Origin: Bacteriovoracaceae bacterium
Lineage (GTDB): Bacteria > Bdellovibrionota > Bacteriovoracia > Bacteriovoracales > Bacteriovoracaceae
DNA length: 58,353 bases
NCBI GenBank assembly: GCA_018649885.1
Contig: JABIHA010000084.1
Span: 124,001-182,353 of the forward strand
Direction of reading: 5' to 3'
The notes below the pieces were generated by a model. It was not told the origin of the DNA, made no database searches, and worked only from the letters and a program-made list of their open reading frames with translations. This document shows, piece by piece, positions 19,997 to 23,625 of the stretch. A program made the position numbers and the translations under genes. Every line of letters begins with the position of its first letter. The first letter of the stretch is position 1.

Positions 19997-21502
19997 TTGG
20001 TAAATTTTAGATTTTTCAAAGTTTTAACATTCATGGTTTTTGCCTATTCTTGTTCCTCATTTGAGGGTGGAAGCGATCAAAAAGCAAAAGAGACCAAGAC
20101 TAAAGCTCCTGCTAGCATTGTTGAAAGTGCTAAGACTGATTTCGAAAAATCCATTCATCAAAGTGATGGAGATACTAGGATTGATGGTTCCTCCACTGAA
20201 ATTACAAGAAAAAATCAAAGCTCAAAAATATATTTCTTATACGGTGCTGAACATCTGGGCCTTAAAAACTACTATTTTGATATTCCCGTTGTTTACAATG
20301 CTGCGACTAAAAAATGGATTACCTATTTTTTAGGTAGAGGAAAAGAATTTTTCATTCGTTATAGCGAGCGGGCAGGAAGATATGCTCCGATGCTGGGGAA
20401 AATTCTTGAAGATCACGGGGTTCCCAGAGATATGATCTTTTTGGCCATGGCCGAGTCAGGCTTTGTGACACATGCAAAATCCCATGCCAGTGCAGTGGGT
20501 CCTTGGCAATTTATCGCCGGAACCGGAAAAAGATATGGCTTAAAAATTAATTGGTATGTTGATGAGAGAAGAGATCCTATAAAGTCCACCATTGCTGCCA
20601 GTAAGTATCTCAAGAAATTGTACAACGACTTTGGATCATGGGAACTTGCCCATGCAGGTTATAATGCAGGCGAAGGAAAAGTTTCTCGCGCCATCAAGCG
20701 ATATAAAACAGAAAATTTCTGGAAAATTAGAAGAGGTAGATATTTTAGAAGTGAGACTAAAAACTACGTTCCCAAAATAATGGCACTAGCTATTATCGGA
20801 AAAAATTTGGAATCTTTTGGCTTCAAAGGAATCGAATTTAAAGATCCTCTTGATTTTGATGAATACAATGTGGGCGCAAATACGGACCTTATGGCATTTG
20901 CAGAGGCCACTGGCATTGACTTTGAAAAAATCCAAGAACTTAATCCTGAAATTATGAGATGGCTTACGCCGGCGACCGTGGAGAGTTACCCACTAAGACT
21001 TCCTGTGGGCTCAGCAAGCAAAGTTAAGGGTTGTTGTGAGAAGATGACCTTCAAAGCTTCTGAGTATGCCTTGTATAAAATGAAGAGTAGAAGTAGCCTA
21101 AAGGCCGTTGCTAGAAAATTTAAATTACCCATAACCATATTGACTGAACTCAATCCCATAAGGGCCGACAGAAGACTTAAGCCGGGCACTATGGTGACTC
21201 TTCCTTTTAGAAAGGGTCAAAAATTTAGATCCAAGATGTACGCTGATCTTTATGAAAAAAGAAGGCGTCGTCGTAGAAGAAGACGAAGAGGCGTGGGCTA
21301 CTATGACCGAATTCGAATTGCTAAACACAAAGGAAAGTTGATCTCCAATCCATACCAGTATTATGTGGTTAGAAAGGGAGATACTTTGTGGGATGTTTCC
21401 AGAAAAACTGGAGTTGCACTCAACACTATCATTCGCTCCAACCTCCGCCTCCTAAACGGCGGCAGAATGATCCGAGCCGGCGACCGCCTAGCCATAAAGT
21501 AA
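19997..21502 (+). CDS. mltD: MltD-like lytic transglycosylase lipoprotein with LysM domains
   Basis: Lipobox AYSC; SLT motifs AMAESG, AVGPWQFI, GYNAGEG and ETKNYVPK; C-terminal LysM YVVRKGDTLWDVS. Confidence 0.9.
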   Translation: MVNFRFFKVLTFMVFAYSCSSFEGGSDQKAKETKTKAPASIVESAKTDFEKSIHQSDGDTRIDGSSTEITRKNQSSKIYFLYGAEHLGLKNYYFDIPVVYNAATKKWITYFLGRGKEFFIRYSERAGRYAPMLGKILEDHGVPRDMIFLAMAESGFVTHAKSHASAVGPWQFIAGTGKRYGLKINWYVDERRDPIKSTIAASKYLKKLYNDFGSWELAHAGYNAGEGKVSRAIKRYKTENFWKIRRGRYFRSETKNYVPKIMALAIIGKNLESFGFKGIEFKDPLDFDEYNVGANTDLMAFAEATGIDFEKIQELNPEIMRWLTPATVESYPLRLPVGSASKVKGCCEKMTFKASEYALYKMKSRSSLKAVARKFKLPITILTELNPIRADRRLKPGTMVTLPFRKGQKFRSKMYADLYEKRRRRRRRRRRGVGYYDRIRIAKHKGKLISNPYQYYVVRKGDTLWDVSRKTGVALNTIIRSNLRLLNGGRMIRAGDRLAIK

Positions 21503-21504
21503 TG

Positions 21505-21630
21505 CTATCTGCTCACATTTTAGCTCATCTTTGGGTTCAGACTTCGTCGGCGCTCAATCAACGCACTTAAGTGCGTTTCAATCGCTTCTCCTTGCTTCAC
21601 CCAAATCTGAACTAAACTGTGAACAGCTAG
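21505..21630. repeat. 126-bp ERIC-like palindromic element
   Basis: Arms 21505-21536 and 21599-21630 are complementary at 26/32 positions; perfect central 18-bp palindrome AACGCACTTAAGTGCGTT (21560-21577); ends CTA...TAG. Confidence 0.8.
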
Positions 21631-22023
21631 GATCACTTTAACTGGTGATGAAATTTTTGGGTTAGCGCACTTCGTGCGGCTGGGGGGTGTTACTGCTTGC
21701 TTGGTTCGGAGTGGGGGGACTTTGGTATGGATGAGGTTGTAGAGGGAGGCGGCGGTGTGGTCGGCTAGGTCTAGGAGTTTTGGGGAGGTGATTTTGGCGA
21801 GGGTTAGGATGGCGATTGTTTCTTTGGTGCTGCCGTAGGCGTTGTAGAAGAATCTTCGTTGGTCTTTGTGGGTTCGTTTTCCGGTGCCTTCTGCGATGTT
21901 GAGGGCGATGCTGCTGCTGGCGCGAGAGAGTTGGGATTTCAAGTGATAGGGGATTCGAAGTTTTTGGCATTCATCGTAAAGCTCGGTAGAAAGTTTAAAT
22001 ACTCTTAGATCTTGAAGCGACAT
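21520..22023 (-). CDS. Four-helix-bundle protein (23S rRNA IVP / TIGR02436 / Avd-like fold)
   Basis: DLRVF...LKSQLSRASSSIALNIAEG.G......RFF..AYGS.KE signature; the C-terminal ~60 aa run into the palindrome. Confidence 0.9.
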   Translation of the reverse strand: MSLQDLRVFKLSTELYDECQKLRIPYHLKSQLSRASSSIALNIAEGTGKRTHKDQRRFFYNAYGSTKETIAILTLAKITSPKLLDLADHTAASLYNLIHTKVPPLRTKQAVTPPSRTKCANPKISSPVKVILAVHSLVQIWVKQGEAIETHLSALIERRRSLNPKMS

Positions 22024-22055
22024 GGTTTTTTTCTCCTCTATATATAGACAGTAAA

Positions 22056-22154
22056 ATTAGATGAGCGAAGCTCATGTAATCCCACCTAGCGCGCAGAGAG
22101 ACACAGTCAAGGGTTTAAGCGAAGCGTCCCTTTACTTTGTCGAACGAAGTGCTA
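22056..22154 (+). repeat. Two adjacent hairpins containing GCGAAGC
   Basis: ATGAGC-GAA-GCTCAT (22061-22075); longer imperfect stem TAGCGC..GACA..CAAGGG / CCCTT..TGTC..GTGCTA (22087-22154). Confidence 0.65.
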
Positions 22155-22220
22155 TTTCCCTCACCCCAGGTACCACTCCCCTTCAAACCCTCACTGCACT
22201 TGATACTTTTTATCCGTCCG

Positions 22221-22316
22221 CCGGAGCTGACTCCCGGAACCGGAACCACCAGACTGAGCAAACTACGAAGCCCCATTTCCGGCTCCGGATACCGGTCCCG
22301 GCTCCGGCAACCGGAA
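22221..22316. repeat. CCGG-core 6-7-nt tandem repeats
   Basis: CCGG at 22221, 22234, 22240, 22279, 22285, 22292, 22298, 22304 and 22311. Confidence 0.8.
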
Positions 22317-22452
22317 CACACCGCAATGACTCACGCCACCACAGTCTAATATAATTAAATACTTATCTCTCCCCCATAATCTCTTTTGACCGAAAACAAG
22401 CAAAAGTTGTATCATTTCAATCTGACTTATATTTTTATCCCGGAGAACCCGC

Positions 22453-23625
22453 TTGTCCTTTTCGATCCTGAAATCTCTCAAAAAAAATGAAGAAATATCT
22501 TATAAAAATTCTTACTACCCTTACCTAATAGTAGGATCAGAATTTTCAAGTTTTAAAATGCTAGATTTCCTAAGAGAAAACTGCGGTGATGAGTCAGTAA
22601 GGCTTCTCACAAGCCACACAGTCAATTCTGATGACCTTTGCTTTGCTGGGATGAGACCTCTTAGGGGTAAAACTAATATAGAGCTTTTTCAAAAGATAGA
22701 ACCAGGTATTCATCTTGGTGAAAAACTTTGTCAGTCTGTTTTTTACAAAGATCAAAAATTTAGAACTTTTGGTGGAAGAGCAAAACCCGCGAGCATGTTA
22801 GATAACGAAGATTTTTTTACATCAGAATCGATGCCTGTAGACATGAATCAGTTAACACCAAAAAGTTTTACTAATCCTGGTGACACAATTCATGAATGTA
22901 TTGTTAGTAAAATTATTCATAAAAACGAAAGTAATAGCGGAAAATGGCAACTTTACACCAAAAACAACGAAATACTTGAGTGTGATTATCTGGTATTCGC
23001 CGAACCATTGGCAAAATTTCTTTCACTTTTTTCAAAAACTGATTCATTAGAAAAAAAACTTATTGATGCATGTGGGGCCGCAGGGCGTAGGCGTGGTTTT
23101 GCCATTCATTTTACGGCTCCTTGGAAGATAACAGACCGCCTTGAGACTCTTTTTATTCCCCAAAGTTTAACTTATGATTGGGGTCATTTTATCGGTGAAT
23201 TTTTAGAATTTGACCAAGAAAAAGGTGTTCAGGAGTTTTCTTTTTTCTCTTTAATTGATGATGAAAATTCCTCTCCAGCTGAGCTTTCAAAAAAAATCCG
23301 AAACCTCAAGAGGAGTATTCAGAGGGTCTTTGGCGAAATTAGGGGCGAGTTCAGCAAGGACTCAAAAACGAGTTTGATAAAAGAAAAAATTGTCTTTCTC
23401 GATCAAGTTCCGAGCTATTTCGAAAACGACTGTGACTTCGATAATTTAATGTGGAAAACTTCAGATTTATTTTTTATTGGTGCTGGATCACCCATTGAAA
23501 AAAAATATTTGGAAGAAAATAATTTAGACTACAATCGAGCTGAAATATCCCACTTAGTTCGCTCAATGCTCTCCGTTTCTCAGATCACATCCAAGTTTAA
23601 TGTAGAAAAAAAACATTTTTTTTAA
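22453..23625 (+). CDS. Hypothetical protein, possibly a degenerate FAD-dependent oxidoreductase fold
   Basis: YLIVGSEFSS at the Rossmann position, ECDYLVFA, LFFIGAG; the GxGxxG motif is not intact. Confidence 0.6.
   Translation: MSFSILKSLKKNEEISYKNSYYPYLIVGSEFSSFKMLDFLRENCGDESVRLLTSHTVNSDDLCFAGMRPLRGKTNIELFQKIEPGIHLGEKLCQSVFYKDQKFRTFGGRAKPASMLDNEDFFTSESMPVDMNQLTPKSFTNPGDTIHECIVSKIIHKNESNSGKWQLYTKNNEILECDYLVFAEPLAKFLSLFSKTDSLEKKLIDACGAAGRRRGFAIHFTAPWKITDRLETLFIPQSLTYDWGHFIGEFLEFDQEKGVQEFSFFSLIDDENSSPAELSKKIRNLKRSIQRVFGEIRGEFSKDSKTSLIKEKIVFLDQVPSYFENDCDFDNLMWKTSDLFFIGAGSPIEKKYLEENNLDYNRAEISHLVRSMLSVSQITSKFNVEKKHFF

Follow-up and report, generated by a model that had tools for sequence, protein, structure and literature searches.

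Short strand-asymmetric tracts in a marine Bacteriovoracaceae genome, one of which crosses from an inserted cassette into the end of a mltD-like gene

Introduction

How did the last codons of a conserved cell-wall gene, and most of the small gene facing it, come to be nearly free of T and G at their silent sites? This question is raised by one locus in the 58,353-nucleotide stretch (the window) that we analysed. The first-pass annotation of the locus had proposed that a palindromic DNA element at 21505-21680 was the source of a local, directional A>G and C>T process that recoded both neighbouring genes in mirror image, and it had dismissed simple horizontal transfer. The features concerned are as follows.

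19997-21502, plus strand: mltD-like lytic transglycosylase, 501 aa, with an SLT domain and two LysM domains (Pfam SLT E 5e-25; LysM E 1e-16)
21434-21499, plus strand: block A, the recoded mltD tail; plus strand A/C-rich
21503-22452: inserted island (intervening-sequence-type cassette and structured repeat) between mltD and the 390-aa gene
21505-21640, minus strand: dispersed structured repeat (the palindromic element of the first-pass annotation); hairpin best read as minus-strand RNA
21520-22023, minus strand: four-helix-bundle gene of the 23S rRNA intervening-sequence (IVS) protein family; open frame of 167 aa
21650-21960: block B, A/C-ending four-helix codons and the DNA just past the family-like end; plus strand G/T-rich
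21961-22099: block C, the first ~21 four-helix codons and the region upstream of them; unskewed
22100-22400: block D, non-coding leader side of the cassette; plus strand A/C-rich
22453-23625, plus strand: conserved neighbour gene p390, 390 aa; not skewed (mean |GC skew| 0.08)

Results

Codon endings in the mltD tail and the four-helix gene

The codon-ending counts given in the first-pass annotation were exact on recount. The last 22 sense codons of mltD (21434-21499, plus strand) end in C 15 times, in A 5 times, in G twice and never in T. The 22 codons directly upstream end in T 9, A 6, C 4 and G 3 times, and the third bases of mltD apart from its tail are T 0.36, A 0.29, C 0.19 and G 0.16. 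On the minus strand, codons 42-101 of the four-helix gene (21900-21721) comprise 40 ending in C, 19 in A, one in T and none in G, and the A/C endings remain almost pure through codons 42-116. The skew fades in codons 22-41, which are intermediate (C 13, T 3, A 3, G 1), and codons 1-21 end in A 8, T 7, G 3 and C 3 times. When the A/C-ending frequency of the mltD body (0.48) was used as the chance model, the probability of at least 20 such endings in 22 was 3e-5 for the mltD tail, and that of at least 59 in 60 was 6e-18 for the four-helix gene.

To place these values in the genome, (A+C)-(G+T) was scanned per 200-nt window (sd 0.095). The tract in the window peaked at -0.55. Of the 83 segments with an absolute value of 0.38 or more, only some on contig C137 (+0.55 and +0.58) matched or surpassed it. 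Tails with at least 20 of 22 A/C endings were found in 6 of 4302 long ORFs, mltD among them, and tails with at most 2 of 22 in another 6 of 4302. The corresponding levels for interior 22-codon windows were 0.025% and 0.042%, a 3- to 6-fold enrichment of the tracts in the last 22 codons of ORFs. Tails so skewed are thus rare in this genome, but not unique. Furthermore, contigs from four sequencing runs of other samples (2012-2019) span the tract with no differing letter. Since the identical sequence is present in four independent marine metagenomes, the tract is not an assembly artefact.

Both proteins keep their family motifs, as had been stated earlier. The best LysM stretch of mltD (Pfam) is residues 456-500, and the four-helix gene matches PF05635 over residues 5-78 (E = 1e-16) and TIGR02436 (E 2e-17). 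The family-like portion of the latter stops near 21680, and the open frame continues across the repeat, on a strand that is very poor in T.

The skew blocks lie in and beside an inserted cassette

Along the plus strand, the A/C-rich mltD tail is followed by the repeat, the G/T-rich body of the four-helix gene, the unskewed start of that gene and the A/C-rich leader. The plus-strand composition is G.41, T.32, A.14 and C.13 in block B; A.30, C.19, G.19 and T.32 in block C; and A.26, C.35, G.17 and T.22 in block D. Block D also contains CCGG-containing direct repeats (D1 and D2, 22221-22317) and a 59-nt stretch (22100-22158) in common with the four-helix cassettes on contigs C5 and C8 (blastn, ~80% identity). 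p390 gave no Pfam or NCBIfam match.

Of 23 mltD loci in relatives, the tails of 13 were analysed; nine were left out for their orientation and one for having no tail match. The orthologues are 49-59% identical, and the gene order up185-mltD-p390 is kept. None of the 13 tails shows the A/C-ending pattern: A/C endings number at most 14 of 22, and T endings number 6-13 in 12 tails, the exception being that of a GC-rich genome (T 1, but G 7). The gap between the matches to mltD and p390 is mostly 25 to ~160 bp in the relatives (maximum ~420 bp) and 950 bp here. Given the conserved gene order, this longer gap identifies the ~950 bp between mltD and p390 as an insertion, whose GC content is 0.45-0.60 compared to 0.38 for the genome. 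The skew blocks lie in and beside an inserted IVS-type cassette. The earlier dismissal of transfer needs to be divided accordingly: the recoded mltD tail stayed under selection as the end of LysM, and the DNA next to it is inserted. Among the genomes searched, there was no same-genus genome by which the substitutions could be polarised. A scan of metagenomes for relatives returned one identical contig, all others being at most 57% identical.

This genome has five other four-helix loci, and three of them (on contigs C8, C5 and C83) are skewed over ~800-900 bp, the skew extending into neighbouring gene ends (the head of a TetR gene and the tail of an 842-aa protein). The 34 four-helix ORFs of relatives all fall within 0.33-0.60. 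The C8 paralogue, which ends after 104 aa, is 68% identical to the window gene at the amino-acid level, and the two genes carry opposite skews. Among their 62 shared synonymous codons, 37 differ by transition, 15 by transversion and 10 are identical. Opposite skews together with mostly transitional differences indicate that the skew postdates the divergence of the two paralogues. The four-helix cassettes, like an HNH endonuclease element, occur in several copies and appear to be mobile. The only inverted repeat found to flank the window cassette is 12 nt long (92% complementary; 21667-21678 and 22141-22152); at locus L065 of a relative, clear complementary arms bracket the four-helix gene.

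The structured repeat is probably not the source of the skew

The mirror-image skew around the element is real, with the G/T-rich strands of the two nearest blocks pointing away from it. The element itself appears to be something other than the DNA palindrome that was first described. When five copies were aligned, the minus-strand fold reached -61.0 kcal/mol in RNAalifold (covariation term -8.3), with compensatory changes at 23 of the 44 pairs of the hairpin, whereas the plus-strand fold of the same alignment reached -31.5 kcal/mol and had many C.A breaks. Because the plus-strand C.A mismatches become G.U on the minus strand, an RNA on one strand is favoured, and this dispersed repeat is probably better read as a minus-strand RNA hairpin than as a DNA palindrome. 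Rfam models gave nothing in 20500-23500 at E <= 1. A long stem joining the mltD tail to block B was considered and rejected, its fold of -139 kcal/mol being close to that of shuffled sequences (-130 +/- 5 kcal/mol, z = -1.8).

A second copy of the repeat lies on contig C130 of this genome (82% identity over 126 nt, blastn), and a single Bacteriovoracaceae MAG holds 14 copies. Neither the C130 copy nor the 16 copies in three other Bacteriovoracaceae genomes are flanked by comparable skew (0 of 17). For the 16 copies, the largest 100-nt flank value was 0.36 and the means were near 0, compared with -0.42 to -0.52 at the right flank of the window copy. Pure tracts also occur elsewhere where the element is missing. 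The hairpin between mltD and the four-helix gene probably does not cause the skew.

Other tracts in the genome

The window tract is one of a set of short (~70-900 bp) strand-asymmetric tracts scattered over this genome. Such tracts extend across gene boundaries, and either strand can be the G/T-rich one. The 5.45 Mb of this genome carry tracts in 21 ORFs, of which 10 fall in the extreme class (40-codon windows with at least 38 or at most 2 A/C endings). In two 400-kb stretches of relatives, 2 and 3 ORFs carry milder tracts (35-36 or 4 of 40), a similar density. Tracts as pure as that in the window, with no structured repeat, lie among the 12 extreme long-ORF tails and in the interior of fpg, the TetR head, three other four-helix cassettes and the HNH element. 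A four-helix cassette is present at just two of the 10 extreme ORFs, namely the window gene and the TetR head beside the C5 cassette. In fpg, codons 40-165 have a G/T-ending fraction of 0.90 compared to 0.37-0.73 in 13 orthologues, and the amino-acid identity to those orthologues (0.45) is like that among them (0.43), the closest being 0.54 and none unusually near.

Polarity does not track gene orientation. Against the local background GC skew, about 8 tracts agree and 4-6 disagree, so that there is no match to the direction of replication. On contig C143 the order is reversed, the plus strand being G/T-rich and then A/C-rich. G runs are not clustered at the 5' ends of G/T-rich strands: 24 lie in the first third, 27 in the middle third and 19 in the last. 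Lineage-specific changes among the three copies of the HNH element comprise 85 G>A versus 60 A>G and 37 T>C versus 16 C>T. These changes oppose the skew, indicating that the process is not active there now. No displaced original gene end, as integrating elements leave, was found in the genome for 10 recoded segments, and Rfam searches of nine other skewed loci at E <= 0.1 gave a tRNA only. Loss of a repair gene was rejected as a cause: in a phylum sample of 31 genomes, endonuclease V was found in none and UDG in 28, including this one, and neither pattern is specific to this genome.

The tracts resemble near-complete transitions on one strand

At four-fold sites, the A/C tracts hold C 97, A 51, T 6 and G 0, and the G/T tracts hold T 175, G 153, A 25 and C 14, compared with a genome background of T.37, A.31, C.20 and G.11. 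These values are close to what a complete conversion of T to C plus G to A (or C to T plus A to G) would give. Codon positions 1 and 2 are slightly shifted in the same direction. In each tract, one strand has become nearly all G/T wherever the protein permits, its A having changed to G and its C to T. The composition thus fits saturating one-strand transitions with the protein kept by purifying selection. The four-fold sites, positions 1 and 2 and fpg support the view that the pattern acts as a strand-specific transition bias, unlike a codon preference. This much of the directional process first proposed stands, with the element no longer supported as its source. The skew would have accumulated in place, slowly and under purifying selection, rather than in a single event or in a distant donor.

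Discussion

The closest published likeness is that of GRINS (Nivina et al., PNAS 2021). As set out in that paper (PMC8256042), GRINS are repeats of more than 500 bp with more than 80% DNA identity to another region, and their mean absolute GC and TA skews both exceed 0.15 in 150-nt windows with a 30-nt step. The two skews correlate with r = 0.70 in GRINS and 0.09 elsewhere (PMC8256042). In the island with the mltD tail (21434-22400), mean |GC skew| is 0.32 and |TA skew| 0.20, above both thresholds, compared with 0.12 and 0.11 in the mltD body, and the skews correlate with r = 0.84 over 28 windows. The window tract further shares with GRINS, as there described, the concentration of linked skews at third positions of working genes (here with family matches kept), abrupt sign changes within 1 kb and an amino-acid composition nudged in the same way. 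GRINS frequently overlap transposases, endonucleases and other mobile genes (PMC8256042), and overlap with mobile genes is frequent in our tracts too. However, the window tract is single-copy: blastn of 21300-22500 against the whole genome gave only the 126-nt repeat (82%) and a 55-59-nt stretch (80%). The island plus mltD tail measures 967 bp, and its single-polarity blocks are 66, ~310 and ~300 bp. It also occupies a housekeeping gene's 3' end next to an inserted cassette, in the AT-rich genome of a predator, whereas GRINS were described from gene-converting polyketide synthase modules. Single-copy regions of intense skew are mentioned in the GRINS paper as well (PMC8256042). Its authors hypothesise that error-prone synthesis leaves the daughter strand with C>T and A>G changes, the mechanism of GRINS being as yet unexplained (PMC8256042).

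Our best guess, held tentatively and with more doubt than confidence, is that error-prone DNA resynthesis, recurring in one direction at the junctions of recombination or insertion events, generates the tracts. Such resynthesis might take place in break or gap repair or in the copying of a cassette, and the nascent strand would acquire G and T through uncorrected G.T mispairs. With a junction near 21500-21650 and synthesis running outward, the minus strand would become G/T-rich to the left and the plus strand to the right, and the structured repeat would be a passenger at the junction. The rarity of such tracts, the insertion, the transition-type four-fold sites, fpg, the opposite skew of the C8 paralogue, the other skewed four-helix loci compared with those of relatives, the fixed sequence and the GRINS hypothesis point to this proposal. 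It is weakened by most of the other extreme tracts, which lack a recognisable cassette, by the reverse order on contig C143, by a polarity that tracks neither gene orientation nor replication, by the HNH changes, by the positions of the G runs and by the milder tracts in relatives. It is also possible, though we give this slightly less weight, that single-copy tracts such as ours record the GRINS-making process before duplication, as the work of a transition mutator that is strand-asymmetric, tied to its locus and active where recombination or insertion forms a junction in a bacterial chromosome. If so, a mutator can recode the silent sites of a housekeeping gene end to more than 90% purity with the protein unharmed. 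The order of A/C then G/T around the junction would also mean that the new strand, and not an exposed template, gains G and T.

An unlikely alternative is deamination during transcription or in R-loops, in which strong transcription, mostly without translation, would keep the G/T-rich (non-template) strand single-stranded and let it collect C>U and A>hypoxanthine. The transcript could be the cassette leader, read-through beyond the convergent stop codons of mltD and the four-helix gene, or the repeat RNA. All window blocks fit if untranslated read-through of each convergent gene marks the end of the other, and three tails of the A/C type face convergent or untranslated neighbours. In mammals, transcribed DNA has an excess of G+T on the coding strand, and endonuclease V, whose presence would count against such deamination, was found in none of the sampled genomes. 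However, UDG is present in this genome. Around the 5' edges of 34 G/T-rich segments, promoters of the sigma-70 type are no more frequent than at random positions (mean of 7.09 vs 7.47 matches), 35 tRNA genes and the tmRNA gene have no average skew downstream, and neither has the C130 repeat copy. Moreover, the sense strand is G/T-rich in translated genes with sharp internal edges (fpg and the tail of a formate/nitrite-transporter (FNT) gene).

Import of the skew appears improbable. Here a foreign cassette would have entered, and homologous repair would have co-converted the mltD end ('intronless homing'), leaving the donor's version as the tail. The island is indeed an insertion and GC-richer than the genome, the boundary of the mltD tail is sharp, and the four-helix cassettes and HNH element are multi-copy and apparently mobile. 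Nevertheless, we know of no donor genome whose codons end exclusively in A/C or exclusively in G/T, which would leave the skew to be explained in the donor. In fpg, an interior stretch is skewed although its relatedness is unchanged and there is no insertion close by, no displaced original of the recoded gene ends was found in the genome, and the metagenome scan gave no relative closer than 57%.

We consider still less probable the model first put forward, in which nicking of the element, or priming of DNA synthesis from it, sends strand displacement or error-prone resynthesis outward. By the refuting condition set out with it, skew-free flanks at other copies, it is already largely refuted. 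The two nearest blocks, with G/T-rich strands pointing 5' to 3' away from the element, are what it predicts, yet the other copies lack flanking skew, many tracts lack the element, covariation favours a one-strand RNA hairpin, and an extended fold including the skewed flanks barely beats shuffled sequence. Selection acting directly on RNA or DNA, for instance for C-rich, G-poor, unstructured Rho loading sites at gene ends, is very improbable: it would suit the enrichment at gene ends and the C-rich, G-poor A/C tails, but four-fold A holds at 33% and T is avoided as strongly as G, which speaks for transitions and not for a drive to maximise C, and the sense-strand G/T tracts and non-coding tracts would be left unexplained.

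Intense local skews of the GRINS type, which recode working genes, are in print as yet with no mechanism, and have been studied chiefly as polyketide synthase repeats. The present locus is a simpler case: its tracts are single-copy, and one of them spans the border between inserted DNA and the 22 final codons of a conserved cell-wall gene. Together with an opposite-skew paralogue and an unskewed orthologue baseline, it offers defined edges and polarities to models of break repair, transcription and transfer. Two warnings follow for annotation: to composition-based island finders the tracts look like foreign DNA, and long spurious open frames arise on their T-poor strand.

Other known systems share single features with the locus. 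In vertebrate mitochondrial DNA, the same pair of transitions affects one strand and sense strands are A/C-rich at silent sites, an asymmetry that is attributed to time spent single-stranded and is graded with distance from the origin. That skew covers a whole replicon and is far less pure, whereas the tracts described here are sub-kilobase, chromosomal and of both polarities. The window cassette resembles IVS elements with an S23p/PF05635 gene, such as the Coxiella IVS (PMC4990558), in being a small four-helix gene (PF05635/TIGR02436) in an apparently selfish cassette, inserted where relatives have none. Unlike that IVS, it lies in a spacer between protein genes and not in 23S rRNA, and only the 12-nt flanking inverted repeat was found. 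Literature searches gave no description of a skewed IVS, and nothing relevant on hypermutation of one strand or on repeats in Halobacteriovorax. An Avd-family gene beside an altered 3' gene end, with a hairpin between them, also recalls a diversity-generating retroelement. However, such elements produce adenine-specific amino-acid variation, whereas the changes here are silent transitions of two types. A blastn search of the genome gave neither a template repeat nor another copy of the mltD tail, and the locus has no reverse transcriptase. The single PF00078 match of the genome lies on contig C141; its best PADLOC models are generic RT, then UG17 and UG26, a defence-type resemblance.

The skewed tract lies within and next to an insertion

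The window derives from contig C20 of a 5.45-Mb genome (151 contigs, 38% GC). The features around the tract are as follows.

19997-21502, plus strand: mltD-like lytic transglycosylase (SLT domain, two LysM domains)
21434-21502: block A (mltD tail), plus strand A/C-rich
21505-21640, minus strand: dispersed structured repeat, lying between blocks A and B
21520-22023, minus strand: four-helix-bundle gene of the 23S rRNA intervening-sequence protein family (PF05635 / TIGR02436)
21650-21960: block B, plus strand G/T-rich (G.41, T.32, A.14, C.13)
21961-22099: block C, unskewed
22100-22400: block D, plus strand A/C-rich again
22453-23625, plus strand: 390-aa gene (p390), no family match

The third-base counts made by hand in the first-pass annotation proved exact on recount. 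The last 22 codons of mltD ended in C 15, A 5, G 2 and T 0 times, compared to T 9, A 6, C 4 and G 3 in the preceding 22. Codons 42-101 of the four-helix gene gave C 40, A 19, T 1 and G 0; its codons 1-21 were ordinary, and codons 22-41 formed a transition zone. The skew of block B (-0.55; the standard deviation for 200-nt stretches of the whole genome was 0.095) was among the most extreme in the genome and was matched or surpassed only by segments of contig C137. Contigs of four runs from other samples (2012, 2016, 2019 and 2019), which cannot reveal rare variants, had 0 differing letters over the tract. Therefore, the tract is real and fixed.

From 23 loci, 13 orthologous mltD tails were analysed (of the other ten loci, nine were set aside because of their orientation and one gave no match to the tail). 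In these tails, no more than 14 of 22 codons ended in A/C and usually 6-13 ended in T, with the peptide conserved. The C/A-ending tail was not shared by these orthologues, and the recoding is confined to this lineage. Some 25 relatives and metagenome contigs have the order up185-mltD-p390, up185 being the conserved gene on the other side of mltD. The mltD-p390 gap was mostly 25 to ~160 bp, and at most ~420 bp, in relatives, compared to 950 bp here. The conserved order and the long gap show that 21503-22452 is an insertion, directly adjoined by the recoded mltD tail.

Further upstream, the mltD linker ahead of the last LysM domain holds 11 consecutive arginine codons (21250-21290). The four-helix ORF has no stop at the end point of its paralogue on contig C8 (104 aa) and continues for ~50 extra codons through the structured repeat (21520-21680, minus strand). 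Since the T-poor strand has few stop codons, an alternative-frame ORF of 102 aa (21662-21970) is also present on it; this ORF and one of 97 aa on the plus strand of block D (22061-22354) are probably both spurious.

The skew reflects directional transitions at silent sites

Four-fold degenerate sites had C 97, A 51, T 6 and G 0 in the A/C tracts and T 175, G 153, A 25 and C 14 in the G/T tracts, against a genome background of T.37, A.31, C.20 and G.11. Complete T>C and G>A change would predict C.57 and A.43, and complete C>T and A>G change T.57 and G.43; these transition-only predictions were near the observed composition in both tract types, which supports the directional transition bias claimed earlier. 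A simple drive toward maximal C was rejected, because A would have been lost too. Codon positions 1 and 2 followed position 3 with shifts of a few percent.

The window four-helix gene and its C8 paralogue share 68% protein identity and carry opposite skews, so that the skew postdates their divergence and is not a property of the gene family. Their 62 shared synonymous codons comprised 37 transitions (25 with C here and T there, 11 with A here and G there), 15 transversions and 10 identical codons. In 34 four-helix ORFs of relatives, the A/C fraction was always 0.33-0.60.

The structured repeat is not the cause of the skew

A second copy of the repeat lies in this genome at C130:29511-29636 (82% identity, blastn), and family-wide and collection-wide searches gave further copies (loci L131, L132, L134 and L143-L158), including 14 in one MAG; the relatives bearing it are Bacteriovoracaceae. 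Five aligned copies folded as minus-strand RNA at -61.0 kcal/mol (covariation term -8.3), with compensatory changes at 23 of 44 pairs and hardly any broken pairs. The plus-strand fold reached -31.5 kcal/mol, with recurrent C.A mismatches. With its far better minus-strand fold, the element is a dispersed structured repeat that is MITE-like or else a multi-copy small RNA; Rfam gave no match for it. Covariation is seen in the inner hairpin, and among the motifs conserved in single-stranded parts is a minus-strand word like AAGGAG. Three copies, at L146, L148 and L153, have other sequence in place of the left arm.

The element had been proposed as the source of the skew. However, flanking skew like that of the window was absent at all 17 other copies examined, an outcome that the first-pass annotation had listed as one that would refute its proposal. 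The 16 copies in other genomes had flank means near 0, with a maximum of 0.36 in any 100-nt window, compared to -0.42 to -0.52 on the right flank of the window element. Hence the palindrome is not the cause, and from the earlier interpretation the transition bias stands without the hairpin as its origin.

Similar tracts occur elsewhere in the genome

Third-position scans of long ORFs found tracts of 60-125 codons, of comparable purity and with no element present, at the following sites.

fpg: interior
formate/nitrite transporter (FNT), amidase, ada/ogt-like and RimK-like genes: tails
genes of an 867-aa and an 842-aa protein: tails
TetR gene: head

Among 4302 ORF tails, 12 had at least 20 or at most 2 of 22 A/C endings, 3-6 times the rate of interior windows; such skew at gene ends is thus rare but not unique to mltD. 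In three of the five other four-helix cassettes (C8, C5 and C83), the sense strand was G/T-rich over ~800-900 bp and the skew extended into the ends of adjacent genes. One strand was likewise strongly G/T-rich in a 251-aa HNH endonuclease element and in several non-coding repeat families. Both polarities occurred, relative to gene orientation and to local replication skew.

C8:44636-45981, C109:2524-3871 and C137:15104-16469 (L137-L139): ~1.36-kb HNH element, three copies at about 80-82% identity, sense strand 10-12% C
C76:15166-15423, C102:323-467 and 86726-86943, C140:504-648, C106:30174-30256, C17:8638-8859, C39:168-273: G/T-rich multi-copy non-coding sequences, two or more families

The HNH element may be a free-standing homing-type endonuclease. 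Near their start, the non-coding families have a short word of the GGCCC...TCACGG type in common; Rfam gave no match for them. Just 3' of the recoded ada/ogt tail, two similar short stretches (C57:119150-119260) resemble tRNA 3' ends; ARAGORN called no tRNA gene there, and they may be attachment-site remnants. In relatives (loci L043-L049, L057 and L065, among further matches), four-helix genes often form pairs, divergent or convergent, with 100-400 bp between the genes, and often lie at contig ends. At L065, such a gene is bracketed by a G/T-rich tandem array and the reverse complement of that array, a stem-gene-stem build like that of intervening-sequence cassettes.

The tracts were probably built up gradually

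Codons 40-165 of fpg had a G/T-ending fraction of 0.90, compared to 0.37-0.73 across 13 orthologues. In this segment, amino-acid identity was 0.45 to the orthologues and 0.43 among them, and no orthologue was unusually close; this normal relatedness gives no sign of a foreign segment and indicates that protein selection is intact. Since a single hyper-mutation event cannot spare codon positions 1 and 2, the tracts must have accumulated little by little while selection acted. One orthologue (L079, in the relative G013) has a weaker G/T excess (0.73) over codons 40-165 as well, which hints that the tendency could be tied to the fpg locus. In the HNH element, lineage-specific changes ran counter to the skew (G>A 85 and T>C 37, compared to A>G 60 and C>T 16), so that there, at least, the process is historical or belonged to an earlier stage of the element.

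Relation to GRINS

GRINS (Nivina et al., PNAS 2021, PMC8256042) are coding regions of bacteria in which GC and TA skews are both intense and correlated, strongest at third positions and with abrupt sign changes. They are frequent in transposases, endonucleases and other mobile genes; as a possible mechanism, the authors suggested error-prone replication that would bring C>T and A>G changes into the daughter strand. Single-copy regions of intense skew receive only a passing mention in that paper. The island with the mltD tail (21434-22400, 967 bp) shows the skews by which GRINS are defined (mean absolute GC skew 0.32, mean absolute TA skew 0.20, r = 0.84 between the two), but the island lacks the repeat that defines GRINS. 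It is therefore a variant of a published, unexplained kind and no new category: a single-copy case of GRINS-like skew, clear and well bounded, beside an intervening-sequence-type cassette, useful for mechanism tests although not unprecedented. The three-copy HNH element is near to the GRINS definition.

Possible mechanisms

In the blocks around 21500-21650, each G/T-rich strand points 5' to 3' outward. This is the order to be expected if, starting at a break or gap, the DNA underwent repeated outward resynthesis in which the newly made strand gained G and T via G.T mispairs, and we tentatively favour that reading. This reading is somewhat doubtful, because the block order at C143 is opposite to that of the window and nothing decisive bears on the mechanism. 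An origin in transcription or R-loops can be fitted to all four window blocks; nevertheless, promoter scans, tRNA flanks and G-run positions lend it no support, and we consider it unlikely. If resected 3' tails were deaminated, the block order would be the reverse of that observed.

Loss of deamination repair was rejected as not specific to this genome; endonuclease V (PF04493) was found in 0 of 31 phylum-sample genomes, 26 of them at least 90% complete, and in 7 of 14 well-known genomes in a control search. A diversity-generating retroelement was excluded. The only reverse transcriptase match in this genome is a stand-alone 438-aa protein (C141:14327-14899, L037), whose best PADLOC matches were a generic RT model, followed by the defence-type UG17 and UG26.
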